A stretch of 64,000 nucleotides of DNA from an uncultured Gemmatimonadota bacterium (lineage in GTDB: Bacteria > JAAXHH01), in assembly GCA_951812955.1 (NCBI GenBank), contig OX638340.1:3648001-3712000 (forward strand), in the 5' to 3' direction. Position numbers and translations under genes: made by a program. Of this stretch, positions 1,846 through 51,994 are shown one piece after another. Under the pieces are notes generated by a model, which worked only from the letters and a program-made list of their open reading frames with translations, was not told where the DNA came from and did no database searches. How positions within the stretch are numbered: the stretch's first letter is position 1; every line of letters begins with the position of its first letter.

Positions 1846-3618
1846 CTAATGACCGAATGCAGCGCCCTCGATCCGGGGGTCCGGCGCACCCAGGCGATAG
1901 CCTGTGTCGGGGTCCACCATGATACTGTGGCCGTCACCCTGGCGGTAGGATCCACCGCCGAATCCGCGGCTGCTGAGCTCATGGCCCTTGGCCTGCAGTG
2001 CGTCCGCTGTCTCGCGCCCCACTCCGCCTTCCAACCGAAGGAAGTCCGGAAACCACTGGTGGTGTACACGCGGCGCGTCGACCGCTTCCTGGATGTTCAT
2101 GCCGTGATCGACGACATTCAGGATCAGCTGCATAGTCGTATTTATGATAGTGCGTCCTCCGGGGCTGCCCACGACCAGGTACAGATCGCCGTTACGCGTA
2201 ACGATGGTCGGCGACATCGAACTCAGCATACGCTTGTTCGGTTCGATGATATTCGGCGGCGTGCCGATCTGTCCGGTGGTTCTCGTGATCCCCGGCTGAG
2301 GATTGAAATCGCCCATCTCATTATTCGTGATCATGCCCGTTCCCGCGATGACGATGTGGGAGCCGTACCCGCCTTCGAGCGTGTAGGTGTTCGATACGCC
2401 GTTACCCCACTGGTCGACAACGGAGTAGTGCGTGGTCTGGTCGCTCTCGCTCGGCATCGTCAAATCGGGTCCCAGTTCTTCGCTGGGCGTGGCGAAGAAG
2501 GGATCGATCGTGGACCGGAGCTCTGCCGCGTACTCCTTCGTCGTTAAGTGTTCCGGTATCTCGACGAAGTCCGCGTCTCCAAGGTGCCGGGCACGGTCGG
2601 CGTAAGCCCGGCGCATCGCTTCGGCCATGATATGTAGTGTATTGGAGGAGTTATGGCCCATCCGGCCCAGGTCGTAACCTTCAAGCATGTTGAGCATAAG
2701 CGACATGGTGATGCCGCCGGAGCTCGGAGGGGGCATGGAAATGATCTCGTATTCCCCCCGATACTTGTTTCTAACGGGTTCCCGAATGATCGCCTGGTAG
2801 TTCGCCAGGTCGGTCCGGTCGATCATCCCTCCCCCGGCTTTCATATCCTTTTCAATCAATTCGGCGGTCACACCCTTGTAGAATCCGTCGTGGCCGTCCC
2901 GGGCGATGTGCTTCAGGGTTTCCGCCAGGTCTTTCTGAACCCACCGGTCGCCTGCCTGCCAGGCCTCGCCGTCGCTCCGGAGCATGGCCGCCTTGCTAGC
3001 CGGGATCTGATTGAATATGACCGTTCGGCTGTTCAATCCCCGGGCGATGCGCTCTGTCAGAATGAACCCGTTTTCGGCGAGATCGATGGCGGGCTGGATG
3101 ACTTCCGCCATGGACATGGTGCCGTATTTCTCCAGGGCCAGGGCGAATCCGGCCACTGTACCCGGCACGCCGATGGCCAGGTGGTGTATGCGGTTGGTCG
3201 GAGGATGGTAGGTTGAACCGTCGCGGCGGGTGAGGGTGATGTTCGGGTTCACCGCGCGGTTGCCGTCTTCATCCAGGTACATCCGGGCATGGGCCTTGCC
3301 CGGCGCTTTCTCGCGGTAGTCGACCGCCACGGCCGTTCCGTCGGCCATGCGTATGATCATGAACCCGCCGCCGCCGATGTTGCCGGCGGATGGGTGGGTC
3401 ACCGCCAGGGCCAGTCCGAGCCCCACGGCGGCGTCTACGGCGTTACCGCCCTTCTTCAGGATGTCCGCGGCGATCTGTGTGGCCAGAGGTTCCACCGCGA
3501 CCGCCATGCCTTTCTTGCCGACGACCGGCTTGCGGGACGCCGCATTGGCATCATAGATCGATAAGGCCGAGATAAACAGGCCGCATATTGCGACCAGGAT
3601 TGTCAGGCGATGCTTCAT
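1846..3618 (-). CDS. ggt: Gamma-glutamyltranspeptidase with N-terminal signal peptide
   Basis: GGT hallmarks are present, including the catalytic Thr in TTHYSVVD and the GGGG/PPSSGG blocks. I moved the start from 3702 to the internal ATG at 3618 (MKHRLTILVAICGLF.., a signal peptide), which has GAGGA 7-8 nt upstream. Confidence 0.9.
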   Translation of the reverse strand: MKHRLTILVAICGLFISALSIYDANAASRKPVVGKKGMAVAVEPLATQIAADILKKGGNAVDAAVGLGLALAVTHPSAGNIGGGGFMIIRMADGTAVAVDYREKAPGKAHARMYLDEDGNRAVNPNITLTRRDGSTYHPPTNRIHHLAIGVPGTVAGFALALEKYGTMSMAEVIQPAIDLAENGFILTERIARGLNSRTVIFNQIPASKAAMLRSDGEAWQAGDRWVQKDLAETLKHIARDGHDGFYKGVTAELIEKDMKAGGGMIDRTDLANYQAIIREPVRNKYRGEYEIISMPPPSSGGITMSLMLNMLEGYDLGRMGHNSSNTLHIMAEAMRRAYADRARHLGDADFVEIPEHLTTKEYAAELRSTIDPFFATPSEELGPDLTMPSESDQTTHYSVVDQWGNGVSNTYTLEGGYGSHIVIAGTGMITNNEMGDFNPQPGITRTTGQIGTPPNIIEPNKRMLSSMSPTIVTRNGDLYLVVGSPGGRTIINTTMQLILNVVDHGMNIQEAVDAPRVHHQWFPDFLRLEGGVGRETADALQAKGHELSSRGFGGGSYRQGDGHSIMVDPDTGYRLGAPDPRIEGAAFGH

Positions 3619-3958: not shown

Positions 3959-5104
3959 ATGCGTAAACACTACCGTTTGATGATCCCAGGTCCCATCGAA
4001 ATAAGCCCCGACGTGGCGGCCCACATGGGCGATCCGATCACCGCCCACTACGGAGATCGCTGGGTGGAGATCTGGCGCAAGACCATTTCCAATCTTCAGC
4101 GCGTCATCGGGACGGAAGGCGATGTTTTCGTACTCGTGGGATCGGGTCACACGGCCAACGACGTGGTCGTGAACAGCCTGTTCAATCCCGGCGACCGGAT
4201 TCTGACCCTCGACAATGGCCTGTTCGGCCGGCGTCTGGATGATCTCGCCAGGGCGTTCGGCCTTGATTCCGTGGTGTTGGAGAAGCCCTGGGGCGTTCCC
4301 TTCGAAGCTTCCGACATCCACGAAGCGGCCGCGGCCAATCCCGGCCTGAAGGCGGTATTCATGGTGCACGGGGAAACTTCAACTGGCGTGGCCAACCCGG
4401 TACGCGAGCTGGCCGCCGCCGCGAAGGAACACGGCATGCTCGTCCTGGCGGACACGATCGCGTCCCTGGGCGGAGAGCAGTACCTGATGGACGCCTGGGA
4501 CATCGACGTCACGGTCTGCGCCTCTCAGAAGGCACTTGGCGCGCCGCCGGGCCTGGCCCTCGTGGCCGTGAGCGACCGGGCATGGGACGTCATGAAAGAC
4601 CGGCGCGAGCCCCGCGGATTCATGGGCGATCTTCAGAACCTGCGCCATTTCGCCGTTACTCAGGCCGACGTCCATCCCCATCCAGGCACCATGCCCGTCA
4701 ACAACTTCGTCGCCCTGGAGAAGAGCACCGCTTCGATCCTGGAGGAAGGTCTCGAGGCGACCTGGACCCGCCACAGAAAGATCGCCCGCGTGGTGCGGGA
4801 AGGGGTCCGCGCCATGGGACTGAAGATCATGGCCGAGGAACGGGCCGCCTGCGTCAACATGACGGTTATCCTTTCGGAAGACCGGTTCAAACCCGTCGCT
4901 TTTTCCGATTTCATGAAGGCCGAGTACGGCATGCACGTCGGCCTGGGCCTGGGTGACTACGTGAATCGGTCGATCCGAGTGGGCCACATGGCGCACAACG
5001 CCAACCTGGAGGCCGTAACGCCGTTCCTGGTCGGCCTGGAACAATACCTGCGCCGGCAGGGCTTCGACGTGGCGCGCGGAGCGTGTCTGGCCGGCCTTGA
5101 CTGA
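3959..5104 (+). CDS. Class V PLP aminotransferase (serine–glyoxylate / alanine–glyoxylate / serine–pyruvate aminotransferase-like)
   Basis: Class V fold-type I blocks: GPIEISPDV, VHGETSTGV and the SQKALGAPPGLA region containing the PLP-lysine. I trimmed the start from the TTG at 3797 to the ATG at 3959 (MRKHYRLMIPGP). Confidence 0.85.
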   Translation: MRKHYRLMIPGPIEISPDVAAHMGDPITAHYGDRWVEIWRKTISNLQRVIGTEGDVFVLVGSGHTANDVVVNSLFNPGDRILTLDNGLFGRRLDDLARAFGLDSVVLEKPWGVPFEASDIHEAAAANPGLKAVFMVHGETSTGVANPVRELAAAAKEHGMLVLADTIASLGGEQYLMDAWDIDVTVCASQKALGAPPGLALVAVSDRAWDVMKDRREPRGFMGDLQNLRHFAVTQADVHPHPGTMPVNNFVALEKSTASILEEGLEATWTRHRKIARVVREGVRAMGLKIMAEERAACVNMTVILSEDRFKPVAFSDFMKAEYGMHVGLGLGDYVNRSIRVGHMAHNANLEAVTPFLVGLEQYLRRQGFDVARGACLAGLD

Positions 5105-5582: not shown

Positions 5583-7658
5583 ATGGTAAAATCCCCAAGA
5601 CTCAAAAAAGAACTCGGTTTCTTCGAAGTGTACGCCGTGGCGACGGGCACGACGCTGAGCGCAGGCTTCTTCCTGTTGCCCGGCCTGGCCGCGATGGAAG
5701 CCGGTCCGTCCCTCGTGCTGGCCTATCTCCTGGCGACCCTCCCCCTCATTCCGGCCATGCTGTGCATCGTGGAACTGGCCACAGCCATGCCCCGTGCCGG
5801 CGGCGTGTATTACTTCATCGACCGCTCTCTGGGTCCTTACGTCGGACTGATTACCGGTGTCGGAACCTGGCTTGCGCTCATCCTCAAGGTCACCTTCGCC
5901 CTTGTGGGAATGGGCGCCTATATTGCCCTGTTCTTCCCCGGCCTGCCGCAGAAACCCCTAGCCATTGTCCTGGCCGCTGGCCTCGGCGCGGTGAACTATT
6001 TCGGTGCCCGGAAGAGCGGCCGTCTACAGATCTACCTGGTGTTGGGCCTGTTGCTCCTCCTGGCCGGCTTTATTGGTGGTGGAGTACCGGCATTGGAATC
6101 TGCTGCTTTCGAGGGACTCTTCGACGTCGAGGTTACTACGCTCATGGGGACGGCCGGTATGGTCTACATCAGCTACGTGGGCGTAACCAAGGTCGCAAGC
6201 CTTTCGGAAGAAATCGAAAAACCGGAGAAGACCCTTCCCCTGGGCGTGTTCCTTGCCCTGGCCACCTCCGTCCTGGTATATGGTCTCGGCACGGCTATTA
6301 TGGTGGGTGTGATTCCCATCGAACGCCTTTCGGGCGACCTTACGCCGGCGGCAACTGCGGCCGAAATACTGTATGGCTGGTGGGGAAGCCTGTTCATCTC
6401 GGTCGCGGCCCTGCTCGCTTTCGTCTCCGTGGCGAACGCAGGCATCCTGAGCGCTTCGCGCTATCCGCTGGCGATGAGCAGGGACCAGTTGCTGCCCGGC
6501 AGAATCAGCCACGTAACTTCCCAGGGCGTGCCGGTCATCTCGCTGCTGCTTACCGTAGCAAGCATCCTCGTCATCCTGGTGGCCCTGGACCCCGTGGGCA
6601 TCGCCAAGCTGGCTAGCGCCTTTCAACTGGTCGTCTTCGCGTTCGTGTGCCTCGCGGTCGTCGTGATGCGGGAGAGCAGAATCGTCGAGTACGACCCGGG
6701 ATACCGATCGCCCTGGTACCCCTGGATGCACATCGCGGGCATGGTCCTGCCCTTCTTCGTGGTCTGGCAGATGGGTTGGCCCGCCATACTGTTCATCGCC
6801 GGGTTCATTGTCGCCGGGACCCTGTGGTATTTCTACTACGCACGGTTCCGGGCCGACCGCAATGGCGCCATCTACCACATCTTCGAACGGTTGGGTCGCC
6901 TGCGACATAAGGGCCTGGATTCGGAGATGCGGGATATCCTGAAGGAAAAGGGTCTCCGGGACGAAGACCCTTTCGAAGACATGATCACGCGATGCCAGGC
7001 CGTCGATCTGGAGCATGAAATCGAATTCGGGCGGGTTGCCAATGAGGCGGCAGAGAGGTTGTCGGCCCGTATCGGGCTTTCAGTCAATGATATCAGCGAT
7101 CGATTCATGCAAGGGACCCGTGCAGGCGGAACGCCCGTGGCAAAAGGCGTGATGCTGCGCCATTTTCGAATACCGGATCTCGCCCTGCCTGAGCTGGTGC
7201 TCGTCCGTTCGTTCGAGGGCGCACGTGTGAACTACCAGAACCCCGTGACCGGCTTGCAGGATTCAGACGAGATTCATGCGTTTTTCTTTCTGGTCAGCCC
7301 CTTGGAAAACCCCGCGTTGCACCTGCGCATGCTGGCCAGGATTGCGAATCGGGCCGATGACGAGAACTTCGGCCAGGTGTGGATCGCCGCGGTCGATGAG
7401 CACTCCCTTCGCGACATATTTCTGCGTCATGATCGGTACCTTACCGTCCCGGTCCTCCCCCAATCGCCCGCAAGCGTCCTGATTGGAAAGCGAATCTCGG
7501 AGATAGATATCCCCGAAGGATGTCGAATCGTGTGGATACGCCACTTCGATGAGGTTATCATCCCCAGGGGCGATACCGTGATCCAATCCGGCACGCTGCT
7601 GACCGTTATCGGAGAGCCCAACGACGTGAACGTTTTCCGACGAAAGTACCACGCCTAG
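5583..7658 (+). CDS. APC-superfamily amino-acid/polyamine permease fused to C-terminal cytoplasmic PTS-EIIA-type-2 (PtsN-like) and TrkA-C (RCK_C) domains
   Basis: 691 aa. The N-terminal ~430 aa form 12 TM helices with APC signatures. Next comes an EIIA-2-like domain with a retained His (..GVMLRHFRIP..). The C-terminal ..IVWIRHFDEVIIPRGDTVIQSGTLLTVIG.. is an RCK_C fold. Confidence 0.8.
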   Translation: MVKSPRLKKELGFFEVYAVATGTTLSAGFFLLPGLAAMEAGPSLVLAYLLATLPLIPAMLCIVELATAMPRAGGVYYFIDRSLGPYVGLITGVGTWLALILKVTFALVGMGAYIALFFPGLPQKPLAIVLAAGLGAVNYFGARKSGRLQIYLVLGLLLLLAGFIGGGVPALESAAFEGLFDVEVTTLMGTAGMVYISYVGVTKVASLSEEIEKPEKTLPLGVFLALATSVLVYGLGTAIMVGVIPIERLSGDLTPAATAAEILYGWWGSLFISVAALLAFVSVANAGILSASRYPLAMSRDQLLPGRISHVTSQGVPVISLLLTVASILVILVALDPVGIAKLASAFQLVVFAFVCLAVVVMRESRIVEYDPGYRSPWYPWMHIAGMVLPFFVVWQMGWPAILFIAGFIVAGTLWYFYYARFRADRNGAIYHIFERLGRLRHKGLDSEMRDILKEKGLRDEDPFEDMITRCQAVDLEHEIEFGRVANEAAERLSARIGLSVNDISDRFMQGTRAGGTPVAKGVMLRHFRIPDLALPELVLVRSFEGARVNYQNPVTGLQDSDEIHAFFFLVSPLENPALHLRMLARIANRADDENFGQVWIAAVDEHSLRDIFLRHDRYLTVPVLPQSPASVLIGKRISEIDIPEGCRIVWIRHFDEVIIPRGDTVIQSGTLLTVIGEPNDVNVFRRKYHA

Positions 7659-7729: not shown

Positions 7730-8662
7730 CTAGGGCACGTAGGGCGTCCCTGTCCGGTGCAGTTCCTTGGTTACCGCCATCTGACACGTCACGTAGGCGT
7801 GCACATCCGCGTTGCCGCGGCGGTTCAGCAGGCCGGCGGAGTAGCCCGGGCGGGCATCCGCGATGGTGCCCACGATGAGGTTTGCGTATTCCACGGTAGT
7901 CTCGTACCGGTCCGCGATGAGGGCGTTCATCTCGCTCCAGGCGATCTTGACGGCTTCCTCCCAGTTGTAGCCCTGTCCGCTGGTCAGGTATTCCTCCCGC
8001 GACTCCACGATCCGGGTTTTCTCCACGACCGGCGCACTGCACGGAAACCCCTGCGATTTATCCACCTTCATCGTGATCGTCGAATCGATTTCCACGCCCG
8101 TGCCGGTCAACTCGCCGTCCCCCATCCGCGCATGCACGTCGCCCAGGGTGAGCAGTCCCCCCGGTTTCTGGGCGCGGATGTGCACCGTGCTCCCCGGTTG
8201 GATCGCATTGAAATCCATGTTGCCGCCCGTATCGATCTGGTGGGGAGCTACCGATTCCAGCTGTACGACGCCGATCATGGGCCGGACCGGCACTACGAAG
8301 TCGGGTGGGAAATGAACGAGTCCGTCTCGCACCGGCGCGATCAGTCGCAGGCTGCCCCAGTGCGGTCCGCCGTTGCGGTAGAAGCCGTAGGGACCGACTT
8401 CCATGTCGATGATCTCCACGGACACCCAGTCCCCGGCCTCGATACCCTCGATGAAAAAGGGGCCACACGGACGCGAATGCCGATAGGGGTCCACGTCCAT
8501 GACCGCCCCGGCCCGCAGGTCCTTCTTGGCGAGGTAGTCCTGGTCGTGTCCCCCGTAGGTCTCCACCTGGACCGTCTCTCCAGGCTGGAGCACGCCCCGG
8601 TTTACACGGTATGCCGGGTCTTCGGGGCCGGACAGGTAAGGGGTGCGGGTGAATCGGCGCAT
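7730..8662 (-). CDS. Acetamidase/formamidase (FmdA_AmdA family)
   Basis: VNRG..PGETVQVET..D at the N-terminus, with family collinearity throughout. I moved the start to the ATG at 8662, preceded by GGAAGGAG; position 8680 is a GTG. Confidence 0.85.
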   Translation of the reverse strand: MRRFTRTPYLSGPEDPAYRVNRGVLQPGETVQVETYGGHDQDYLAKKDLRAGAVMDVDPYRHSRPCGPFFIEGIEAGDWVSVEIIDMEVGPYGFYRNGGPHWGSLRLIAPVRDGLVHFPPDFVVPVRPMIGVVQLESVAPHQIDTGGNMDFNAIQPGSTVHIRAQKPGGLLTLGDVHARMGDGELTGTGVEIDSTITMKVDKSQGFPCSAPVVEKTRIVESREEYLTSGQGYNWEEAVKIAWSEMNALIADRYETTVEYANLIVGTIADARPGYSAGLLNRRGNADVHAYVTCQMAVTKELHRTGTPYVP

Positions 8663-8859
8663 GAGATACTCCTTCCTCACTGGGCTGACAGATTATGGAG
8701 TAATAGAAATCATTCTGTATTGCCTTGATGTGTTTTTTGTCACCTTCGGGCGATTGTGCGTTATATTCCGGATTGTATTCGTTCCTTCGACCCCTTACAA
8801 GCCCAAAAACAGCGCCAATGCGCGACCAAATACGCGCTGCGCGCTGCGGAGAACTGCCC

Positions 8860-9711
8860 ATGCGACTGACGGAACAGCAACATGCGTTTGTGGATACCTT
8901 CGGCTACCTCGGTTTTCCTGGGTTATTGAAAGACCGGATCGACGAGATCATCGACGCCTTCGAGTCCGTGTGGACCGAGCGCGGCGGCGGGCACGACGGA
9001 AGGCCCCACGACGGTACGGCGCGGTCCTGCATCGTGCCCTTCATCGATCAGCATCCGGTGCTGTCCTCGCTCATAGACGATCCTCGGGTCAACGGCATCT
9101 TCAGCAGCCTCCTGGGCGATGATTTCGTCTACCTGGGCAGCGACGGCAATTTCTACGTCAGCGATACCAACTGGCATTCCGACACGGACTGGTCGGGCAA
9201 GATGCGTGGCAAGCCGCCCCGCATCTACTTCAAGATGGCCTTCTATCTCGATCCCCTGACGCGGGATTCGGGTGCGCTTCGGGTGATTCCGGGCAGCCAC
9301 CGGTACGGCGACGCCTATGCCGAAGCGCTGGAAACCCGGATCAGGAAGTCGGGGGAAAACTGGGGCGTCGAGGGCTGGGAGGTGCCCGCGGTGGCGCTCG
9401 AGACGCAACCGGGCGACGTCGTCGTATTCAACCAGAACACCAAGCACAGCGCCTGGGGAGGAAGCGACCGGCGCAGGATGTTCACGATCAATTGTACGGC
9501 GCGTTTCGCCGAGAAGGATATGCAACTACTGAAGAACGAGATCGCCGCGGGCGCCCGGTTCTGGCTCGACAGCGTCTACGGCGAAGCCATGCTGGAGACG
9601 GCCGGTCCGGCGCGCATGAAGCACCTGGAGCAGCCCCTGGCCCACCAGGACCACCTGGCGGAGGAAGTGCGGAAGGCTAAACTGCGGATGGCGGAGCCGT
9701 CGAGGGGTTAA
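8860..9711 (+). CDS. Phytanoyl-CoA dioxygenase (PhyH) family Fe(II)/2OG-dependent oxygenase
   Basis: WHSD..W, ALRVIPGSHR and a later H in ..KHSAWGG..RR: the His-x-Asp...His facial triad plus the Arg. The start at 8860 (MRLTEQQHAFVDTFGYLGFPGLL) aligns with the paralog at 21932-22720 (MFQLESHQKEFMDTFGYLHFPGLL). Confidence 0.8.
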   Translation: MRLTEQQHAFVDTFGYLGFPGLLKDRIDEIIDAFESVWTERGGGHDGRPHDGTARSCIVPFIDQHPVLSSLIDDPRVNGIFSSLLGDDFVYLGSDGNFYVSDTNWHSDTDWSGKMRGKPPRIYFKMAFYLDPLTRDSGALRVIPGSHRYGDAYAEALETRIRKSGENWGVEGWEVPAVALETQPGDVVVFNQNTKHSAWGGSDRRRMFTINCTARFAEKDMQLLKNEIAAGARFWLDSVYGEAMLETAGPARMKHLEQPLAHQDHLAEEVRKAKLRMAEPSRG

Positions 9712-10712
9712 CGCCAGGTCTGACGGGCGCGGACTTCGGAGAGGAACCGCTTCGCGTTGCCTGAGAAATGGTCCTCGATCTCCCGCGCGGTCAGACCCAG
9801 CATGTCCGCCACCTGTTTTTCCTGCCTGAGCTGCTCGTAGATGACCAGCGTCGCCCTGGAATCGCAGTGGGGCGTCGTTTCCGTCGTGCCCTCGTAGTAG
9901 GTCCACGCACGCCCGTAGGTCACGTACTTGCCGCGTGCGCATCCCGCCACAACGTTGTCCGAGCCAAACATGACGCGCGAGCGGTCCTCGTGTTTCATCA
10001 GCAGGTATTGGGTGTACAGGTCGTTCACGGCCGAGGTGTCGTACCAGATATTGGGCAGGCCGGTCAGGAACTGGATCGCCCGCTCCATCATGAAGCAGTT
10101 GAAGGCCCTTGCGCAGTGGGCAAGGATCCACTGGGCGCGGGGATACCGCTTCGTGTAATCTGCGAGGTCCCGCTGGTTGTCGGGGTCCGCCGGTCCTTCG
10201 GGCTTGGACATGTGCATCGTGATGGCAAGCCCCATGTCGTGGGCCACCTCGATGAAGGATTCGGGCAGAAAATCGCGGATGCGGCAGTAGGTGGGATCCG
10301 GGGCGAAGGTCCGGTACGGCTTCAGGCCCAGGAAGCCGTGTCTTTTTACCTGCGCGGCCACGTATTCCGGCGTCATGTCGGGCGTGACCATCATGTTGAT
10401 CCCCGATACGGGATCCTGCTTCATCTCCTCGGCCATCCAGTCGTTATGCCCTTCCGTGTCGATCCCCCCCGGGATCGGTGTACCGAGGACCAGGTAGTGC
10501 ATCTCGCGGCCGGGATACATTTTATTCGCCCAGTCCAGGTGGTCCTGGTAGTCGATTTCAAGGCGGAGCCCGGAGGGGTCCGGGTCCAGTCTTCCCCTGT
10601 GCCGCTCAGACCACATGTGGACGTGCATGTCGTAGACGGTGTCCGGTACGTAATCGGCCAGTTCTTCGTCCCATATGCCCCGATCGAATTCCTGGTAGTC
10701 CGGCGCTCGCAT
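9708..10712 (-). CDS. Amidohydrolase-2 family (TIM-barrel metal-dependent hydrolase/decarboxylase, ACMSD-like)
   Basis: DMHVHMW metal-binding start and collinear Amidohydro_2 blocks (..HMSKPEG.., ..FGSD..). I trimmed the start to the ATG at 10712, which has GAGGAGA immediately upstream. Confidence 0.75.
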   Translation of the reverse strand: MRAPDYQEFDRGIWDEELADYVPDTVYDMHVHMWSERHRGRLDPDPSGLRLEIDYQDHLDWANKMYPGREMHYLVLGTPIPGGIDTEGHNDWMAEEMKQDPVSGINMMVTPDMTPEYVAAQVKRHGFLGLKPYRTFAPDPTYCRIRDFLPESFIEVAHDMGLAITMHMSKPEGPADPDNQRDLADYTKRYPRAQWILAHCARAFNCFMMERAIQFLTGLPNIWYDTSAVNDLYTQYLLMKHEDRSRVMFGSDNVVAGCARGKYVTYGRAWTYYEGTTETTPHCDSRATLVIYEQLRQEKQVADMLGLTAREIEDHFSGNAKRFLSEVRARQTWR

Positions 10713-10936
10713 GTTGTCTCCTCGAGTTTTGGTCGGATCGCGCGGATTTACGCTTCTCGGGCACAACGTCCGGTATGCTTTGTGTGAACCCGAGCCATAC
10801 ATTAGTGGAACACCCATTTTAGTAGAAGTGGGCCGGAGTTTCAAGGCAAAAGAGTCTTTGACAACACCTCGTCCCGTCCACTTATTGCCCACGAGATCAA
10901 CTCCCTTAAATACCGCCATCTACGTTGGAGGCTATC

Positions 10937-12097
10937 ATGGCTGAAACACACGAAATGGACCGGCGGAATTTCCTGCGTAACACCGTCCTGGGCGGCGCGG
11001 GTGTTTCGCTGATCGGCACGCCGGTATGGGAAGCCGCGGCCCAAATGGTCAACGAACCCCAGATGCCGGCAGTAAACGGTGTCGGACTCGATGATCCCCT
11101 GCTGGTCCAGCTCAGCATCAATGAGAATCCCCTCGGCGCTTCGCACCGCGCCATCGAGGCGGTCGCGAGCAAGATGTTCGGCATGAACCGGTATACCATG
11201 CACAACGAGCTCGAGGAAGCCCTCGCCGACTTTCACGGCGTCGATCCCGAGTCGGTCTTCATGGGCGTCGGTTCATCGGAAATCCTGTTGACGGCGACGC
11301 TGGCGGCCTTCTGGGATCAGCCAGGCAATACGGTGACGGCCTTTCCATCCTATCGTTCCATACCGAGGACGACCGAGGAACTCGGACAGGCGGTCAAGAA
11401 AGTGCCCCTGACCGGAGACTGGCAGATGGACCTGTCCGCCATGGCTGCGGCGGTCGATGACCAGACCCGGATCGTCAGTATCTGCAATCCCAACAACCCA
11501 ACGGGCCAGATACTCGATGCCTCGGCGCTGGAGCAGACGATCAGGGCGATGCCGAAGGACGTAATCGTCTGCGTCGACGAAGCCTATATTCAGTTCGTGG
11601 ACGATCCGGACTACCCGTCGATGATTCCGTTGACGAAGGACGTCGAGAACCTGCTGATCTCCCGCACGTTCTCTAAGGCGTATGGACTGGGTGGCATGCG
11701 TGTCGGTTATGGCGTCGCGCACCCGTCGCTGTTGGAGAAAATGCAGCGGTTCAGCATCGGAATGCTCAACAAGAACACCCTATCGACCGTTGCGGCCCTC
11801 GCCGCGCTGGGAGACCAGGAGCACGTGAGGCGTTCGGCAGCGCTTGCACGGGAAGGCAAAGCGTATCTCTACGAAGAGCTCGAAGGCATGGGATACAGCC
11901 CCTTGCGCACGCAGACCATCTTCGTCACCGTCGAGGTCGGCCCCAACGTGCAGACTCTCATAGATCGCCTCTGGGAGAAGAAGGTCCAGGTCCGTCAGGC
12001 TTTCGACATGGAAGGCTTCATGCGGATTTCAGTCGGCCTGCCCCGGGAGAACGAAGCCTTTATCTCCGCCTTCAAGCGGGAACGCAGCGCGTTGTAG
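10937..12097 (+). CDS. Class I/II PLP aminotransferase (histidinol-phosphate/aromatic aminotransferase-like) with twin-arginine (Tat) signal peptide
   Basis: DRRNFLRNTVLGGAGVSLIG..AAAQ is a Tat motif. HisC-like blocks follow (NENPLG, NPNNPTG, and SKAYGLGGMRVGY containing the PLP-lysine). The ATG at 10937 has GGAGG 7 nt upstream. Confidence 0.75.
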   Translation: MAETHEMDRRNFLRNTVLGGAGVSLIGTPVWEAAAQMVNEPQMPAVNGVGLDDPLLVQLSINENPLGASHRAIEAVASKMFGMNRYTMHNELEEALADFHGVDPESVFMGVGSSEILLTATLAAFWDQPGNTVTAFPSYRSIPRTTEELGQAVKKVPLTGDWQMDLSAMAAAVDDQTRIVSICNPNNPTGQILDASALEQTIRAMPKDVIVCVDEAYIQFVDDPDYPSMIPLTKDVENLLISRTFSKAYGLGGMRVGYGVAHPSLLEKMQRFSIGMLNKNTLSTVAALAALGDQEHVRRSAALAREGKAYLYEELEGMGYSPLRTQTIFVTVEVGPNVQTLIDRLWEKKVQVRQAFDMEGFMRISVGLPRENEAFISAFKRERSAL

Positions 12098-12165
12098 ACA
12101 ACAGTCATTCAGGCAACAGGACCGGAGCGCGTCTTAGGCGCGTTACAGAAAGGTATTTCAATCCG

Positions 12166-12930
12166 ATGAATTACCCGAACACGCTCAAGCGGCGCATCCG
12201 CGACGGCGAACTGCTGCTGGGTACGGTCCTGACCGCCCATAATTCGTTTGACGCCTCGGTGGTCTGCGGTTCGGATATCGACTTCCTCTGGATCGATACC
12301 GAGCACTCCGCGAGTGCCGTAGAAGACCTGGGCATGGTGCCGGTGATCGCCCGCCAGCGGGACGTGGCGCCCATGATCCGGATCGCGTGGAATGATCCCG
12401 CCTTGATCAAGAAGGCCTACGATATCGGTGCCGTGGCGGTCATGATCCCCCAGGTCAACACGGCCGAGGAGGCGGAGCACGCGGTTCGGCACGCCCGGTA
12501 CGCTCCCGAAGGACAGCGCGGGATTTCCCCCTACTGGGCGATGATGGCGGGACTGGACTTCAAGCACGTAGTTAAAACGGCCAACGCGGAGACCGTCACC
12601 GTGCTGCAGATCGAAAGCGTCGAAGCCCTGGATAACCTGGACGAAATCAAGCAGGTGGAAGGAATCGACGTCCTCTTTCTCGGTCCCACGGACCTGTCCG
12701 CGACGATGGGCGTGATCGCTGAGACCGAATCACCCGAGGTACAGGGCGCTATGCGCGAGTTTCCCGGCCGGCTGGAAGGTTCCGGGATCATGGCGGGGAC
12801 GACGCTGGCCGATTTGCAGGATATCCAGCAGAAAATTGAATGGGGTTACCGATTCATCAACGTGGGCAGCCCCATGGGTTACGGTATGCAGGTGCTGAAG
12901 GACAACCTGGATGCGCTGCGGAGTGGATGA
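12166..12930 (+). CDS. HpcH/HpaI-family 2-keto-3-deoxy-acid aldolase
   Basis: 254 aa, collinear with HpaI/RhmA-type class II aldolases (..LWIDTEHS.., ..VMIPQVNTAEEA.., ..QIES..). Confidence 0.85.
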   Translation: MNYPNTLKRRIRDGELLLGTVLTAHNSFDASVVCGSDIDFLWIDTEHSASAVEDLGMVPVIARQRDVAPMIRIAWNDPALIKKAYDIGAVAVMIPQVNTAEEAEHAVRHARYAPEGQRGISPYWAMMAGLDFKHVVKTANAETVTVLQIESVEALDNLDEIKQVEGIDVLFLGPTDLSATMGVIAETESPEVQGAMREFPGRLEGSGIMAGTTLADLQDIQQKIEWGYRFINVGSPMGYGMQVLKDNLDALRSG

Positions 12931-12934
12931 GCGG

Positions 12935-13741
12935 ATGATCAACGAAGAACAGGTCCGGAAATTCCAGGAAATGGGATGGCTGGTGGTGGAGGGCGTCTAC
13001 ACCCACGAGGAAGCCGACGAGGTGGCGCGACTGGCACTGCAGACGGCGGATTCCATGGATGTAGAGGAATCCATGGCCGGCTATCTGCTGGACCGTTCCG
13101 AATCGGGAGAATCCGCGCCCCGGAAGATCGACAGTCCCTACCTGCGGAATCCGCTATTTCGCGATTTTGCCCTGGATGGCAGGCTTCGGGAGATACTCCG
13201 GCGAATCACCGGCGAAGAACCCCTGCTCAAGAGCGACCAGCTTTTCATGAAACCGCCGCGGTTCGGATCGGAGAAACCTTACCACCACGACAATTTCTAC
13301 TTCCGTTGCACGCCGGGCGGCCACGTGATCACGGCCTGGATCGCCCTCGACGACGTGGACGAGGAGAACGGCTGCCTTCGATACATCTCCGGTTCGCACA
13401 AGAAGGGGATCATCGAGCACGTGGAGGTCCCCGGCCAGCCCTACAACCTGGCTCCTCCGGACGACTTGATCGATTGGGAGAACGAGGCCTCAGCGCCGGT
13501 GCGCAAGGGCGGCGTGGTCTTCCACCACTCGGAGACCCTCCACTCGTCGCGTCGCAATACGTCAGATCGATGGCGGCGCGGCTACGCGACGCATTGGGTT
13601 ACCGCTGCGGTGACCAGCGAGACCGACAACCTGGACGGCGCATATTTTCAAAGCGACGAGTACGCGGAGTACGTGCGGGCCGTGGACCGGACGAAGGATG
13701 ACGCGGCGCAAGTTGGTACCGCCGATTCGGGAGGGGCCTGA
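12935..13741 (+). CDS. PhyH family Fe(II)/2OG-dependent oxygenase
   Basis: HHDNFYF and WIALDDVDEENGCLRYISGSHK motifs. The ATG at 12935 lies just after the aldolase stop. Confidence 0.8.
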   Translation: MINEEQVRKFQEMGWLVVEGVYTHEEADEVARLALQTADSMDVEESMAGYLLDRSESGESAPRKIDSPYLRNPLFRDFALDGRLREILRRITGEEPLLKSDQLFMKPPRFGSEKPYHHDNFYFRCTPGGHVITAWIALDDVDEENGCLRYISGSHKKGIIEHVEVPGQPYNLAPPDDLIDWENEASAPVRKGGVVFHHSETLHSSRRNTSDRWRRGYATHWVTAAVTSETDNLDGAYFQSDEYAEYVRAVDRTKDDAAQVGTADSGGA

Positions 13742-13779
13742 CTTTGACGACGGCAACGGTGGCCGGAACTATCACCGAT

Positions 13780-14427
13780 CTCATGTGGTCGGAGACGGCT
13801 TCGATCTACGACGCGATCCTCGCGCACCCTTTTATCAAGGGACTAACCTCCGGGGATCTCGACCGGTCTGCTTTCGAGTTCTACACCGTGCAGGACGCGC
13901 TCTACCTGAAGGACTACGCCCGGGCCCTGAGCCTTGCCGCCGTGAAAGCGCCGGATGAGGAGACCATCATCCTCTTCAACGAGCATTCGAAGGGCTGTCT
14001 CGTGGAAGAGCGGGCCATGCAGAAGAACTTCTTCGACGTCTTCGGCCTTTCGGCGGAACAGGTGTGGGCGACGCCCAAGGCACCCGCTTGCCAGGCCTAT
14101 ACGAGCTACCTGCTATCGGTAGCCTACGCCCGGCCCTTCCACGAGGTCGTGGCCGTGGTGCTTCCCTGTTACTGGATCTACTGGGAGGTGGGCAAGGCGC
14201 TGGCCGAGAAGGGATCGCCCGATCCCATGTACCAGCAGTGGATCGACACCTACGCAGGCGAGGAGTTCGCCGAGGCCGTCGTGGCCGTCCTCGAAATCAC
14301 GAACCGGGTCGCACGGGGACTTCCGGATGTGGATCGAGCAGCCATGCTACATCATTACGTCACGACCAGCCGGTACGAGTGGATGTTCTGGGACATGGGG
14401 TATCGGAAGGAAGCCTGGCCGGTGTGA
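13780..14427 (+). CDS. TenA/PqqC-like (heme-oxygenase-like fold; thiaminase II / aminopyrimidine aminohydrolase family)
   Basis: Collinear with B. subtilis TenA (..HPFIKGL..G.L, YTVQDALYLKDYAR, LPCYWIYWEVGK, YEWMFWDMGYRKE). The start is taken at the ATG at 13780; a TTG at 13744 is also possible. Confidence 0.75.
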   Translation, partial: LMWSETASIYDAILAHPFIKGLTSGDLDRSAFEFYTVQDALYLKDYARALSLAAVKAPDEETIILFNEHSKGCLVEERAMQKNFFDVFGLSAEQVWATPKAPACQAYTSYLLSVAYARPFHEVVAVVLPCYWIYWEVGKALAEKGSPDPMYQQWIDTYAGEEFAEAVVAVLEITNRVARGLPDVDRAAMLHHYVTTSRYEWMFWDMGYRKEAWPV

Positions 14428-14462
14428 GGAGGGCACCACGCCGGTGTCTATGGACCCAGTTA

Positions 14463-15245
14463 CTACGCTCGATCGTCGTCGCTAATCAGGTTACGCAGGA
14501 TGTCCACCAGCGCCCGTCCGGGTGCCTTCTCAGCGTATCCAGCAGATTCAAATCCCCGTTGTCCATTTCTCCGCACCTCAATCTCGCCCCACGGGACAAA
14601 GAACCCCTCTTTCAACCGGACTTCCACCAGGTCGCCGATGTCGTACAGCGTCGAGGTGTTGTTGTTAACTAGCCGGTTCGACCGGGTAATGGCCATGCCT
14701 TCTTCTCCTGAACCATCGATATCGTAGAACACCAGCAGGTCGGCCACCGTGGCGGCCACCCCGCGAAACAGGGCGTTGTTCTGAAGCGATACGATGAAGT
14801 TGGCCCCCCTGTCGGCGTCGATATCCGGGTGGATGTATAGACCGGCTCTGGTATTGGTCCAGATCCCGCGGGCGGCCCGTCGTACACGCTGGACAGCCGG
14901 GTCAGTGGATGATCCGTTTCCCGTTCGACTGGAGGCGCCGGTCCGGGCATGCTCTCTCCGTTCATGGGCAGTCTGCGAGGAAGTACGGTAACGAGGCGGC
15001 TGTTGCCGTTGGGAGGACGCCCTGGAAGACGAAGGCATCCGCAGCTTTTCCGGATTTCGGACGAGCCACTGGTAGGCCTCATTGATCTCCGTGAACTTGG
15101 CCGTGGCGCGGTCTTTCACACGGTCGGGCACCTTGTCCGGGTGCCAGATCAGCGCCAGCTCCCGGTACGACTTCTTCACGTCGTCAATAGACGCGCCTGG
15201 AGCGAGGTCGAGCGAATGAAGCGCCCTGTTCGTGGTATCGTCCAT
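14463..15245 (-). CDS. J-domain (DnaJ-like) protein with uncharacterised C-terminal domain
   Basis: N-terminal SYRELALIWHPDK (the HPD motif). The ~130 aa C-terminal region has no family I can recognise. Confidence 0.65.
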   Translation of the reverse strand: MDDTTNRALHSLDLAPGASIDDVKKSYRELALIWHPDKVPDRVKDRATAKFTEINEAYQWLVRNPEKLRMPSSSRASSQRQQPPRYRTSSQTAHERREHARTGASSRTGNGSSTDPAVQRVRRAARGIWTNTRAGLYIHPDIDADRGANFIVSLQNNALFRGVAATVADLLVFYDIDGSGEEGMAITRSNRLVNNNTSTLYDIGDLVEVRLKEGFFVPWGEIEVRRNGQRGFESAGYAEKAPGRALVDILRNLISDDDRA

Positions 15246-15375: not shown

Positions 15376-16209
15376 ATGCCCATTACCGACGCCCTGCCCG
15401 ATATGAAGCGGGAACTTCGTTTTTTTCCGGCAAGATCCGAAAATCCGAAAGCGCTTTCCCGTGAACAGATCGACTTCTTCAACACGAACGGGTATCTGTG
15501 CCCCCTCGATGTATTTACGCCGCGGGAAGCCGAAGCGAACCGCCTGTATTTCGAGGACCTGATGGCCCGTGCAGAGAAGGAAGGGTACAACAGCTACTCC
15601 ATCAACGGCTGGCATCGGCATTGCGAGGGCATCTACAACCTGGCCATGAACGAGAGGATTCTGGACTACGCGGAGGACCTGGTCGGCGAGACGTTGATCT
15701 GCGAGATGACCCACTATTTCTGCAAGATGCCGGGCGACGTGCAGCGGGTGAGCTGGCACCAGGACGCCTCCTACTGGCCTCTGACCCCGAGCAAAGTGGT
15801 GACGATCTGGCTGGCCATAGACGACGTGGACGGGGAAAACGGACCCATGACGGTCATCCCCGGTTCACACCTTCACGGACAAATCCCCTTCGAGAACAGC
15901 ACGAAAGCCGAACGCAACGTGCTGGGACAGTCCGTCCACGACCCGCTCAGGTGGGGTGGCGATCCCGTGCCCTTTACCATGAAGGCGGGCCAGATCTCCA
16001 TGCACACCGACCTGCTGCTGCACGGTTCCGAGCCGAATGTTTCCGACCGCCGCCGCTGCGGACTGACGATACGGTATCTGCCGCCGGACGTCCGGGGCCG
16101 CTACCCGGAATACCACAGGGCCATCATCTGCCGAGGCAGCGATCCCTCGGGTTATTGGAGACCCATACCCCGCCCGACGGGCGACCAGATTCCTCCACGC
16201 AATCGCTAG
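15376..16209 (+). CDS. PhyH family Fe(II)/2OG-dependent oxygenase
   Basis: WHQDASYWPL and IWLAIDDVDGENGPMTVIPGSH motifs. Confidence 0.8.
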   Translation: MPITDALPDMKRELRFFPARSENPKALSREQIDFFNTNGYLCPLDVFTPREAEANRLYFEDLMARAEKEGYNSYSINGWHRHCEGIYNLAMNERILDYAEDLVGETLICEMTHYFCKMPGDVQRVSWHQDASYWPLTPSKVVTIWLAIDDVDGENGPMTVIPGSHLHGQIPFENSTKAERNVLGQSVHDPLRWGGDPVPFTMKAGQISMHTDLLLHGSEPNVSDRRRCGLTIRYLPPDVRGRYPEYHRAIICRGSDPSGYWRPIPRPTGDQIPPRNR

Positions 16210-16335: not shown

Positions 16336-17226
16336 CTATGCCGAAAGCGGCCTGCAGTTTTTACACGGCCGGCATCCGCCGTTCGTTGCGTCCTCCGTAC
16401 TGCTGAATTCAAGGCGGTGCTCCCGCTTGATGCGCCGCGCATCACGGCAGGTGGGGTAACAGTAAATTCCTGTAGTTCGGCTTCCGATGTAGCGTACACC
16501 CCGCTGCTTCCAATTAGCGAGATCTTCCCTCGGTATTCCTTCCCGTTCCAGCAGCGTCCATTTCATTTCCGGACCGTAGTAGTAGTTTCCCACGCCCCCG
16601 GTCGAGGGTACAAGCCGGTGGCAGGGCACCAGGAAGGGAACGGGATTCCGGGCCATGACCGTTCCAACGGCACGGACCGCCTTCGGTCTGCCCACCTCCC
16701 GGGCCAGCCAGGCATAGGGACGGACCTCTCCAGACGGTATCCTGGCCAGGTGTACCAGCACGGTCTGTTCGAATTCGGTAAGTCCCTCAAGGGTAACCGG
16801 TGGCTGAGCGATCTTTTCTCCTCTTATGGCCCGTCTGACTGCCAGGGCGTAGGTTTCCGGCAAGGAACCACGTACTACGGAACGCCCGAGCCTGTCTTTG
16901 TAAAATGACTCGAAGGCGCCGTCCTCCGCCACGTCGAGTTTAACCGCGGATATGCCCTTTGGCGTGAAACCTACGTGCGCCGGCCCGAAATCCGTGTCGA
17001 TGACATCGTACCGATCTGCAATCCTGATCATAACTTCCTCCATGAGCCCCGCGGGGGCGGTCAGTATCAGTTTGGGAGATGCCGCTGCGAGATGCCCCAT
17101 GAATGCGGCCTCTTCGCGGCATGCGGCACACACTTCCAGGTGTTCCACCACGGCCCGGCTCGCCTTATCGTACGCCTCGCCGGTTCTGATTTGATCCAGT
17201 TGCTGTCTTGCTTCGTTACAGTCCAC
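16336..17226 (-). CDS. Cytoplasmic ZAS-type anti-sigma factor fused to Ogt/MGMT (O6-alkylguanine-DNA alkyltransferase, N- and C-domains) and an Ada-N-like Cys4 zinc domain
   Basis: From the N-terminus, VDC..(27)..HLEVCAAC gives the C..HX3CX2C spacing of ZAS anti-sigma factors (RsrA is C11/H37/C41/C44). The central region has the MGMT blocks (..FEQ.VL..L..IP.GE...Y..LA...G.PKAVRAVG...NP, then active-site PCHRLV..G..GNYYYG...K..LL.REG). The C-terminus TTGIYCYPTCRDARRIKREHRLEF..GGCRPCKNCRP matches E. coli Ada-N (TTGIFCRPSCRARHALRENVSFY..GFRPCKRCQP). The start is a GTG at 17226, which overlaps the sigma stop (AGTGGACTGTAA). Confidence 0.75.
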   Translation of the reverse strand: MDCNEARQQLDQIRTGEAYDKASRAVVEHLEVCAACREEAAFMGHLAAASPKLILTAPAGLMEEVMIRIADRYDVIDTDFGPAHVGFTPKGISAVKLDVAEDGAFESFYKDRLGRSVVRGSLPETYALAVRRAIRGEKIAQPPVTLEGLTEFEQTVLVHLARIPSGEVRPYAWLAREVGRPKAVRAVGTVMARNPVPFLVPCHRLVPSTGGVGNYYYGPEMKWTLLEREGIPREDLANWKQRGVRYIGSRTTGIYCYPTCRDARRIKREHRLEFSSTEDATNGGCRPCKNCRPLSA

Positions 17227-17770
17227 TGGGGTCGTCCTCCATGATTTTGCGAAGTCTGCGTAGCGCCCGGTACACCTTGCCCCGCAGCGCCGATTCCGAC
17301 GAACCGGTGACTGCCGCGATATCCGCATAGGTGTATTGCTCGATGAATCGCAGAATGATCAATTCCCGGCTTTCTCTGCCCAGTCTTTCGAGAGCCTTCC
17401 GGATCGCCCTGGCCTGGTCGTTTTGGGGGACGAAGGCCTGCTCTTGAAGGTCGTCCTTCATCCGCTCTACCGCGCCTGTCATGCGTTTGCGCGACCTCAG
17501 CCTGTTCAACGCCAGGTTCCGCACGATGCGGTACAGCCAGGGACGGATTTCGAGCGTCCGGCACCGCTCCGAGTCGTACTTACCGGAGAGTGTTTCGTAG
17601 GCCTTGACAAAGGCTTCCTGCGTAACGTCGAGGGCATCGTCCGAACCACCGAGCATGTGGAAGGCGTAGGTGAAGAGTCTGTCCTTGTATGCCGCCACCA
17701 GGTTTGCCACCGCGCCTCTGTTGCCGCGATGGATTTCCAGCGCGATGCATCGTCCCTCTTCCTGCGTCAT
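17216..17770 (-). CDS. ECF (sigma-70 family, group IV) RNA polymerase sigma factor
   Basis: Region 2 (..DVTQEAFVKAY..) and region 4 (..LILRFIEQYTYADIAAVTGSSESALRGKVYRALRRLR) are both present. It is translationally coupled to the downstream anti-sigma gene. Confidence 0.85.
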   Translation of the reverse strand: MTQEEGRCIALEIHRGNRGAVANLVAAYKDRLFTYAFHMLGGSDDALDVTQEAFVKAYETLSGKYDSERCRTLEIRPWLYRIVRNLALNRLRSRKRMTGAVERMKDDLQEQAFVPQNDQARAIRKALERLGRESRELIILRFIEQYTYADIAAVTGSSESALRGKVYRALRRLRKIMEDDPSGL

Positions 17771-20946: not shown

Positions 20947-21900
20947 TTACCCGTACATCCGGATCGGGGTGGGCTCGGTGGGACGGTTCTTTCGGGGCGG
21001 ACGCTGCGTAGTGACCTTCAGCGCCTCCTCCCAGCCCCGGCTCCACGTGTTGTAGTCCGCTAGCACGAATTCGGGATGGCGCTGGCTGCGGACGATGAAG
21101 TTGGGGTAGAAGGATCGTCCCGTGGGCAGGCCGGTCTGCTGATACCGCAGGTCGAGACTCCACCGGATCGATCCCGATCGGTTGGGGATGGACCGGTGCG
21201 GGATCAGCTTGTGCATGAGCAGCACGTCGCCCTTCTTCATCGGCAAAGACAGGACCTTGCCTTCGGGCAACCCGCTTTCTTCGATGCCGAATCCTTCGCT
21301 CCAGTATACGGTGCCGCGGTGGTGTACGCGGGGGATGATCTGCAGGCATCCGTTCTCTTCGTCGGTATCGCACAGGGGCAGCCAGACGGTGAGAATAAAG
21401 ACCGGATCGGCGTCTTCTTGGTGCACCTGCGCGTCCTGGTGCCAGGGCGCCACATTTTCTTTGACACGCGCAGCCAGGGCGTTCTCGTCGCCGCTGCCGT
21501 TGCCGCCACTATCGCCACTGGCCACGGCCTCCGGCAACTTCGCCCGCAGATGCTGTATGGGGCTGCACGTGATTTCGGGTCCGACGAGAGACCCCACCAG
21601 GTTCAGCATCCGGTCGTTACCGAGAAATCGGAATACCGCTTCGGCACGCATGTGCATGATGTCGATATCGTCATAGATCGAGGGGTTTTCCCGGGTGATC
21701 AGGGCCAGCCGTCGCTCGAAGGGTTCTCCCTCGTGAAGTTCGGTAATTCGTCCTTCTTCATGGAGACTGCGCGCCCGTCCGTCCACGAACGCTTCGATCC
21801 CGGCGATGACGGGATCCAGATCATCACCGGTGAGCGCTCCCTTTACGATGACGTATCCTTCATCTACAAAATGCTGAAACTGATCCTGTGTGAGTGCCAT
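20947..21900 (-). CDS. PhyH family Fe(II)/2OG-dependent oxygenase
   Basis: WHQD.. and LTVWLPLCDTDEENGCLQIIPRVHHRG motifs. Confidence 0.8.
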   Translation of the reverse strand: MALTQDQFQHFVDEGYVIVKGALTGDDLDPVIAGIEAFVDGRARSLHEEGRITELHEGEPFERRLALITRENPSIYDDIDIMHMRAEAVFRFLGNDRMLNLVGSLVGPEITCSPIQHLRAKLPEAVASGDSGGNGSGDENALAARVKENVAPWHQDAQVHQEDADPVFILTVWLPLCDTDEENGCLQIIPRVHHRGTVYWSEGFGIEESGLPEGKVLSLPMKKGDVLLMHKLIPHRSIPNRSGSIRWSLDLRYQQTGLPTGRSFYPNFIVRSQRHPEFVLADYNTWSRGWEEALKVTTQRPPRKNRPTEPTPIRMYG

Positions 21901-27092: not shown

Positions 27093-27248
27093 GATGTAGA
27101 ATGGGTGAGGTGGCATTGCCCGATCTACCGAAGATACATCGCGAAGCATTCCGGTCAAGGCGGCGGGCTGATCAGGCCGGTGCCGCCCCCGGCGATGGAT
27201 CCGGCTTTTCCGGCAGGCATCCATAACCTGAAGAGATGACCATACTCC

Positions 27249-40087: not shown

Positions 40088-40139
40088 TTTCGCTCCCTGT
40101 AACAACCTGAATCGACCTCTTGAATTATACGCGAGTCAC

Positions 40140-51622: not shown

Positions 51623-51994
51623 GCTGATCTGCCGACGTACGCACGAGTTGTTATTTAGGTATCACGAACGAATAGCGGGAACCAACAAGATACACACTGC
51701 CCTGTGGAGTGTCAACCATTCCTTATGTTTCTTGGGTACAGGCTGCTCCATGGCCCATCGGGTGCCTGCAGCAGGCCATTTTTTGTCGGCGACAGGTAAC
51801 CAGAAAAAACCTAAGCCGCGCTCATGCCCAGGCGTTATTCTACCTTGACACCGGCAGGAATACACCGCTTTATTTTTGATCGAAATCCACCCGTTCATCC
51901 CGAACGGGACCCTGCGCAAATCGGAGTTCGGCCGCGCCCTGCGCATTGCCTCGAACACGAACAACGCGTAAAACAAGTATATCGGGATAGGAAA

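Follow-up and report, generated by a model that had tools for sequence, protein, structure and literature searches.

A string of four genes on contig OX638340.1 of an uncultured Gemmatimonadota bacterium encodes, in order, an aminotransferase (AT), an HpcH/HpaI-family aldolase (HpcH), a PhyH-family dioxygenase (PhyH) and a TenA-family protein (TenA). It occupies positions 10937-14427 of the 64,000-nucleotide stretch that was analysed (the window). An earlier note on this DNA had taken the four genes for the operon of a single catabolic pathway. In related genomes they are kept, dropped or split independently of one another, and the string is therefore read here as a patchwork of ordinary enzymes and not as a four-step pathway. 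For each of the four genes there are relatives that do without it or have it apart from the others. The products are new members of known enzyme families, with HpcH and PhyH belonging to no characterised subfamily. Our favoured reading, to which we give about an even chance, is that the string is a lineage-specific mosaic, probably co-transcribed, whose three units are functionally separate: an AT that would act in the periplasm, HpcH with or without PhyH as a cytoplasmic module, and a TenA that would serve in thiamin salvage.

Gene content of related loci

Related loci were gathered by exact look-ups of AT, HpcH and PhyH homologues, by a scan of a genome collection and by scanning metagenomes with an alignment specific to the AT clade. 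All loci were searched by tblastn with the window proteins, and a tree of the AT sequences was built. The genome-collection scan was run with a broad AT alignment, and the matches listed comprised one close relative and approximately 79 distant, mostly cytoplasmic HisC loci; the distant HisC loci were used solely as a negative control for co-occurrence.

The full four-gene set is confined to loci with an AT identity of at least 85% to that of the window, and was not found to co-localise across divergent genomes. This group consists of the window itself, L098, L001, L014 and L140, with TenA not seen in L140. At 73% identity (L004/L117) and at 68-69% (L100 and L101) the arrangement is AT-HpcH-TenA, and at 68-71% (L102, L103, L121 and L133) it is AT-TenA, with the two genes 20 nt apart. 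At 67% or less, AT stands alone in unrelated contexts in approximately 25 loci of approximately eight sequence types, among them a place beside ribosomal-protein genes, surroundings with glycosyltransferase genes and a toxin-antitoxin region. Judged by parsimony on the AT tree, the ancestor of the clade that spans 64% identity and above would have carried AT-HpcH-TenA; HpcH would then have been lost once, and PhyH would be confined to the sub-lineage of the window. An AT-TenA ancestor with HpcH inserted later was also considered, and was dropped as the tree favours AT-HpcH-TenA. The identity of PhyH homologues jumps from at least 80% to 67% or less with nothing between, whilst that of HpcH falls off smoothly, and HpcH homologues at approximately 62-64% identity are found in unrelated neighbourhoods.

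HpcH and PhyH are also found together in the absence of the other two genes. In L138/L139 their homologues (61% and 56% identity, respectively) are adjacent and in the same order, separated by 11 nt, and neither the AT with its twin-arginine leader nor TenA is present. The pair lies directly downstream of homologues of a block that stands upstream of the string in the window, whose members were assigned with Pfam: PALP (766-1785, reverse strand; 56% identity), gamma-glutamyltranspeptidase (GGT; 1846-3618, reverse strand; 73%), a class-V aminotransferase (3959-5104, forward strand; 52%) and an APC permease carrying a TrkA_C domain (5583-7658, forward strand; 59%). The gene content of L138 is PALP, GGT, AT5, NIPSNAP, permease, Amidohydro_1, HpcH and PhyH. 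The HpcH-PhyH pair is thus associated with the GGT/PALP/class-V/permease block independently of the rest of the string.

TenA can be separated from its neighbours as well. In L002 (L002:12769-18087), a strain variant of low coverage that comes, like L001, from sample ERZ25072670, the genes of a Gabija defence system are inserted in TenA after approximately codon 50, on the opposite strand. The GajA of this insert scores 935 bits (PADLOC), and its GajB is broken into fragments, for which long-read errors are the probable cause. Past the insert lies a further TenA, diverged but full-length, with a different, A+T-rich upstream region, and no direct repeats flanking the insert were found. In L140, PIN-like and M78/HTH genes are inserted after PhyH, at the same junction as the Gabija genes of L002.

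The string in the window consists of four intact open reading frames (ORFs), read from the sequence in the order AT-HpcH-PhyH-TenA on the forward strand, with intergenic gaps of 68, 4 and 2 nt. The gene calls and the tight, same-strand spacing of the earlier note are correct, as is its assignment of the products to HisC-like aminotransferases, HpcH/HpaI, PhyH and TenA. The AT gene (10937-12097; PF00155) starts with ATG and has GGAGG 5 nt upstream (10927-10931), and HpcH (PF03328) extends from 12166 to 12930. PhyH (12935-13741; PF05721) starts with an ATG that has GGAG 11 nt upstream, and TenA (13744-14427; PF03070, 148 bits) starts with TTG and has GGAGG 9 nt upstream. For PhyH the ATG at 12935 was preferred over an in-frame ATG at 12911; it is the more likely start due to the GGAG site and because in L001 the homologue, of 258 aa, begins 4 nt past the aldolase stop. 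A convergent gene with a DnaJ domain has its stop 35 nt from that of TenA at 14427.

The common strand, the short gaps and the lack of an internal terminator (the terminator scan found no forward-strand hairpin of this type inside 10937-14427) are those of an operon, and, judged from spacing alone, the four genes are probably co-transcribed as a single unit. Their promoter is presumably located in the divergent intergenic region of 224 bp (10713-10936) between the AT gene and a reverse-strand gene for an Amidohydro_2-family protein. No forward-strand promoter match was found in this region, where the sole sigma-70-like match is on the reverse strand (10844 to 10816), and matches to promoter and terminator consensus sequences did not exceed shuffled expectation. 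The 4-nt and 2-nt junctions, together with their Shine-Dalgarno sites, suggest that HpcH, PhyH and TenA are translationally coupled. GC content and GC content at third codon positions (GC3) are even across the four genes and their neighbours, and there is thus no sign of recent foreign origin.

The 68-nt spacer between AT and HpcH (12098-12165, forward strand) carries a GCGCG-N6-GGCGCG motif and has no T-run terminator. A similar motif is kept in this spacer in most relatives. In L098, the AT of which is 99% identical to that of the window, the spacer is approximately 195 nt long (L098:1675-1868) and the motif is repeated there.

Properties of the four enzymes

AT is a class I/II aminotransferase of the HisC fold, dependent on pyridoxal 5'-phosphate (PLP), and matches PF00155 with 177 bits against a gathering cut-off of 19.7. 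The Schiff-base PLP lysine K247 and residues N187, D214, Y217, R255 and R363 are invariant in the alignment of the AT family (A1), and the closest relatives in the PDB are HisC and aromatic aminotransferases. The protein scores below all curated NCBIfam cut-offs, with 250.6 bits for hisC (cut-off 276.55), 233.6 for PRK09105 (444) and 199.4 for PtaA (500).

Relative to HisC, AT has approximately 35 extra residues at its N-terminus, and residues 1-35 (10937-11041, forward strand) are predicted to be a signal peptide of the twin-arginine translocation (Tat) pathway, with RRNFLR at residues 9-14 and an inferred cleavage site after WEAAA. The leader reads MAETHEMD-RRNFLR-NTVLGGAGVSLIGTPVW-EAAA/Q, where the slash marks the cleavage site, and D-R-R-N-F-L-R at residues 8-14 corresponds to a motif of the S/T-R-R-x-F-L-K type. 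Under TATFIND-type criteria a Tat leader has an uncharged h-region of approximately 13-20 residues followed by A-x-A; in AT the h-region is NTVLGGAGVSLIGTPVW, a run of 17 uncharged residues, and EAAA/Q follows. All 44 related AT loci at 49% identity or above have the arginine pair followed by the uncharged stretch, and the earlier note was right about the Tat-type leader. Within A1, which reaches down to 38% identity, 17 of the 19 sequences have a twin-arginine leader and the two exceptions are N-terminally truncated calls. No match of AT to the Pfam profile PF10518 (TAT_signal) was found. From the conserved leader, AT is likely to be exported to the periplasm via Tat. The family reaches approximately 50% identity in Latescibacteria and Zixibacteria, and the closest named homologues are from Gemmatimonadetes metagenome-assembled genomes (MAGs).

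An exported enzyme of this fold is known from Pseudomonas fluorescens and P. aeruginosa, in which periplasmic transaminase A (PtaA) was reportedly described by Ringel et al. in 2017; to our knowledge it is the only exported HisC-like transaminase with a known function. The earlier note had regarded an extracytoplasmic PLP transaminase as unusual, and such enzymes are indeed uncommon, yet there is a precedent in PtaA of Pseudomonas, a Tat-exported and PLP-loaded HisC-like transaminase (PMC6206403). By analogy with PtaA, AT would take up its PLP in the cytoplasm, leave in the folded state via Tat, and then transaminate an amino compound in the periplasm. HpcH, PhyH and TenA have no leader or N-terminal extension, as the family profiles match them from the very first residues, and they are predicted to be cytoplasmic, in contrast to the predicted periplasmic location of AT.

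TenA scores 166 bits with the TIGR04306 equivalog profile, above the cut-off of 130. When aligned to TenA of Bacillus subtilis (1tyh/1yaf, E = 2.5e-39; phmmer) it keeps the equivalents of D44, Y47, Y112, C135 (in LPCYW), Y163, E205 and F208, all of which are identical to those of 1tyh. In the B. subtilis numbering we take Cys135, Asp44 and Glu205 to be the catalytic residues and Tyr47, Tyr112, Tyr163 and Phe208 to be those of the pocket. By these measures TenA is a canonical thiaminase II (aminopyrimidine aminohydrolase) of thiamin pyrimidine salvage, and not the generic C-N hydrolase of a catabolic pathway for which it had been taken in the earlier note. [quoted passage not shown] TenA has a known role in salvage, in a pathway that needs a formamide hydrolase upstream of it (PMC5635689). 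No Rfam match was found in the window at gathering score, nor in 10400-14700 at E <= 1, and hence there is no thiamin pyrophosphate (TPP) riboswitch before TenA or before the string. A paper on the Palauibacterales (PMC10469786) mentions neither TenA, nor salvage, nor PhyH.

HpcH is a class II aldolase of the HpcH/HpaI family (PF03328, 111.7 bits against a cut-off of 25), and its relatives in the PDB are YfaU, HpaI and GarL, with E-values of approximately 1e-36 to 1e-38. Its translation holds DTEH, IRIAW, QIES and GPTD, which we take for the counterparts of the HpaI residues that serve in catalysis (His and Arg) and in metal binding (Glu and Asp). The scores with the equivalog profiles of HpaI (162.8 bits; cut-off 368.8), GarL (155.3; 406.75) and RhmA (145.5; 441) all lie below the cut-offs, and consequently the 4-hydroxy-2-oxo acid that is its substrate cannot be assigned.

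PhyH matches PF05721 over all 213 positions of the profile (1-213) with 124.9 bits, and has no match among the NCBIfam equivalogs. Its best PDB relatives are PHYHD1, SnoK and EvdO2, and leucine hydroxylase (5nch) is among the matches. The HxD...H facial triad is present, as YHHDNFY and TLHSS in the translation. The window contains eight PF05721 genes, located on the forward strand at 8860-9711, 12935-13741 (the copy in the string), 15376-16209, 30196-31002, 31045-31839 and 51824-52768 and on the reverse strand at 20947-21900 and 21932-22720. The copy in the string is approximately 25-30% identical to the neighbouring copies that start at 8860 and 15376. Due to this number, the presence of one PhyH in the string is weak evidence for a specific pathway. 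The PhyH expansion in this genome is striking.

If the string is a mosaic, HpcH with or without PhyH would be a cytoplasmic accessory module of the surrounding island of genes for scavenging nitrogen compounds. PhyH would hydroxylate a substrate, and HpcH would then cleave a 4-hydroxy-2-oxo acid in a retro-aldol reaction to give pyruvate and an aldehyde. The class-V aminotransferase, which is cytoplasmic, would be a more plausible transaminase partner for these two enzymes than the exported AT.

Weighing of the alternatives

Several observations weigh against a division of the string into functionally separate units. The adjacency of AT and HpcH is kept in three of the four sub-lineages and the divergence of HpcH parallels that of AT; such co-retention would also fit a functional pair. 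The coupling of HpcH, PhyH and TenA could likewise reflect a common function. If L138 belongs to the same clade as the window, the block common to both may be inherited synteny and not an independent association. The synteny observed is all from a single clade and therefore cannot separate genes that are functionally unrelated from genes that are linked but dispensable. With regard to export, the TAT_signal profile TIGR01409 scores 14.2 bits with AT (E = 0.043), just under its cut-off of 16.7.

One alternative, which we consider unlikely, is that AT, HpcH and PhyH form a three-step unit with TenA as an unrelated passenger. PhyH would gamma-hydroxylate an amino compound, AT would convert the product to a 4-hydroxy-2-oxo acid, and the aldolase would release pyruvate and an aldehyde. 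Hydroxylation, transamination and aldol cleavage make a sensible sequence of steps for class II aldolases, the chemistry is coherent for these enzyme families, and there are amino-acid hydroxylases among the relatives of PhyH, such as the leucine hydroxylase 5nch. AT and HpcH are also adjacent, with parallel divergence, in the window group, in L004 and in L100/L101; PhyH, however, is absent from L004 and L100/L101, and L102/L103 and all loci at 67% identity or less have AT but not HpcH. The leader conserved on AT, and found on neither HpcH nor PhyH, would place the steps in different compartments, and in L138 the HpcH-PhyH pair is found without the Tat-type AT and with a cytoplasmic class-V aminotransferase there instead.

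A proposal that is compatible with the mosaic, and that we regard as distinctly doubtful, is that AT works with the periplasmic GGT and that its neighbourhood of HpcH, PhyH and TenA is incidental. The substrate of AT would be either glutamate set free by GGT or gamma-glutamyl compounds, transaminated at their free alpha-amino group in the way that PtaA transaminates pyoverdine. PtaA itself acts on a gamma-linked glutamate (PMC6206403), and the GGT of the window has a Sec leader. In four of approximately 11 distinct lineages at 49% identity or above, the Tat-type AT has a GGT gene no more than 10 kb away, and in the other seven there is none in the vicinity, with the cytoplasmic HisC loci as the sole control for this co-occurrence. 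The distance is 5-7 kb in the clade of the window, and a GGT paralogue of 29-30% identity is directly divergent from AT in L010/L011:7953-11254, L129:2839-5956 and L112/L113:346-3463. A point against the proposal is that the score of AT with PtaA (199 bits) does not exceed that with HisC (251 bits).

The wider claim, held equally tentatively, is that AT is part of a distinct and widespread family of Tat-exported HisC-fold transaminases, found in MAGs of the Gemmatimonadota, Latescibacteria and Zixibacteria type and scoring below the PtaA, PRK09105 and HisC thresholds, which would act in the periplasm of bacteria that do not make pyoverdine, possibly with GGT and on glutamate or gamma-glutamyl compounds. 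If this were true, the family would provide an undescribed periplasmic route of transamination for nitrogen scavenging. The family with its Tat leader is the part of the locus that is worth keeping, as it is conserved in phyla that make no pyoverdine, and it raises testable questions as to the periplasmic substrate, the regeneration of PLP outside the cytoplasm and a possible link to GGT.

That the four enzymes constitute one pathway for an amino- or pyrimidine-containing compound, with TenA as its C-N hydrolase, appears very improbable. Spacing and common strand favour this idea, as does the gene order kept in L001, L014 and L098; the earlier note had named synteny in another genome as a check on its proposal, and in these three loci the four genes are indeed syntenic. 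The order is, however, kept only at an AT identity of at least 85%, and beyond this group partial sets and lone genes are found. Further points against the single pathway are a TenA that passes the thiaminase II equivalog cut-off with a complete catalytic set and that is cut off from the rest of the string by the Gabija insertion in one strain (L002), the mismatch of compartments, and the eight PhyH genes of the window.

Two amidase-type genes on the reverse strand lie upstream of the string. The gene for the Amidohydro_2-family protein (9708-10712; PF04909, 64 bits) is divergent from AT, its start was set with the help of homologues of 334 and 335 aa, and it is kept in all relatives at an AT identity of 68% or above; no PDB relative of the protein was found at E <= 0.01. 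A short amidase of the FmdA/AmdA family (7730-8680; PF03069, 65.6 bits) is kept in most of these relatives, with only a distant match of 30% in L004/L117 (73% AT identity), and its matches in the PDB are 'acetamidase' entries of unknown function. A salvage core for degraded thiamin made up of these two proteins, AT and TenA, in which an amidase would deformylate an N-formyl-aminopyrimidine in place of YlmB before TenA makes HMP and into which HpcH and PhyH would have been inserted later, is the least probable reading of all: the four genes are syntenic in most loci at 68% or above with enough flank (the FmdA-like gene being weak or absent at 73%), a formamide hydrolase is what the known pathway needs, and Pfam describes the FmdA/AmdA family as hydrolysing small formamides and acetamides, yet the association is limited to one clade and could be inherited synteny, there is no TPP riboswitch or other Rfam match, no thiamin transporter, thiD or thiE was seen near the string among the window ORFs scanned, the amidases have no characterised close relatives, and the scheme has no role for a periplasmic transaminase.

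If the lineage-specific mosaic is the true account of the string, the locus adds little: a pathway is not defined by close packing on one strand in an uncultured genome that shuffles its genes, and a TenA beside catabolic genes is still a thiamin-salvage enzyme.

Neighbouring genes and known systems

The first 24 kb of the window form an island of enzymes and transporters for nitrogen compounds. Besides the Sec-exported GGT, PALP, the class-V aminotransferase, the APC permease and the two amidase-type genes, the island includes many PhyH genes, a family-5 solute-binding protein and a BNR_2 protein. No siderophore or non-ribosomal peptide synthetase (NRPS) genes were found among the window ORFs scanned.

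Several other genes of the window are unusual in their arrangement or content. A gene for an extracytoplasmic function (ECF) sigma factor overlaps the gene downstream of it, which is in the position of an anti-sigma factor gene (16336-17328 and 17216-17770, both on the reverse strand). The product in this position combines an Ada zinc-binding domain (PF02805) with the DNA-binding domain of O6-methylguanine-DNA methyltransferase (PF01035, 89.5 bits), and its homologue in L001 has a weak zf-HC2 match. The architecture is unusual for an anti-sigma factor. A membrane protein of the TMEM164 family, which is known mainly from eukaryotes (26280-27224, reverse strand; PF14808, 151 bits), neighbours a 934-aa NAGLU-like alpha-N-acetylglucosaminidase (27249-30053, forward strand) and the BNR_2 protein (22788-23867, reverse strand). 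Close homologues of the genes at this locus bear the names of Gemmatimonadetes MAGs and some PhyH homologues those of Poribacteria and a Theonella symbiont, and these names together with the three genes hint at a sponge-associated or marine lifestyle with degradation of host glycans. Two adjacent AcrB/RND-type transporter genes (31859-35128 and 35168-38965, both on the reverse strand) are adjoined by a gene for a membrane-fusion protein (38984-40105); the second transporter has 1265 aa, with an ACR_tran match that falls into three separate stretches.

When compared with known systems, PhyH resembles PHYHD1, SnoK, EvdO2, MysH and ectoine hydroxylase in that it covers the whole PF05721 profile and has the HxD...H motif, and differs from them in having no equivalog match, in being one of eight paralogues in 64 kb and in sharing no more than 27-29% identity with the paralogues next to it. 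HpcH has the fold and the catalytic motifs of the class II divalent-metal pyruvate aldolases HpaI, GarL and RhmA (YfaU), from which it is set apart by scores of 145-163 bits against equivalog cut-offs of 369-441. The TenA of the window is like that of B. subtilis, where YlmB and TenA salvage base-degraded thiamin, in its equivalog score, its catalytic Cys, Asp and Glu and its aromatic pocket; unlike the latter, it has no ylmB or thiXYZ neighbours and no TPP riboswitch, and is placed behind unrelated catabolic genes.

The families with which AT scores best are HisC (TIGR01141) and the Tat-leader subfamily PRK09105 (NF006580), and the PLP-binding residues are all kept. The PRK09105 profile aligns from residue 5 of AT and so includes the leader, whereas the scores with both families remain under their cut-offs. 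An exported enzyme, moreover, cannot serve in cytoplasmic histidine biosynthesis. AT differs from PtaA in its score with NF051461, which is less than half of the cut-off, and in coming from a non-pseudomonad with no pyoverdine genes nearby among the ORFs scanned. It shares with PtaA the HisC-like class I/II PLP fold and the N-terminal twin-arginine leader, and would therefore be expected to be exported in the folded state with its PLP bound.

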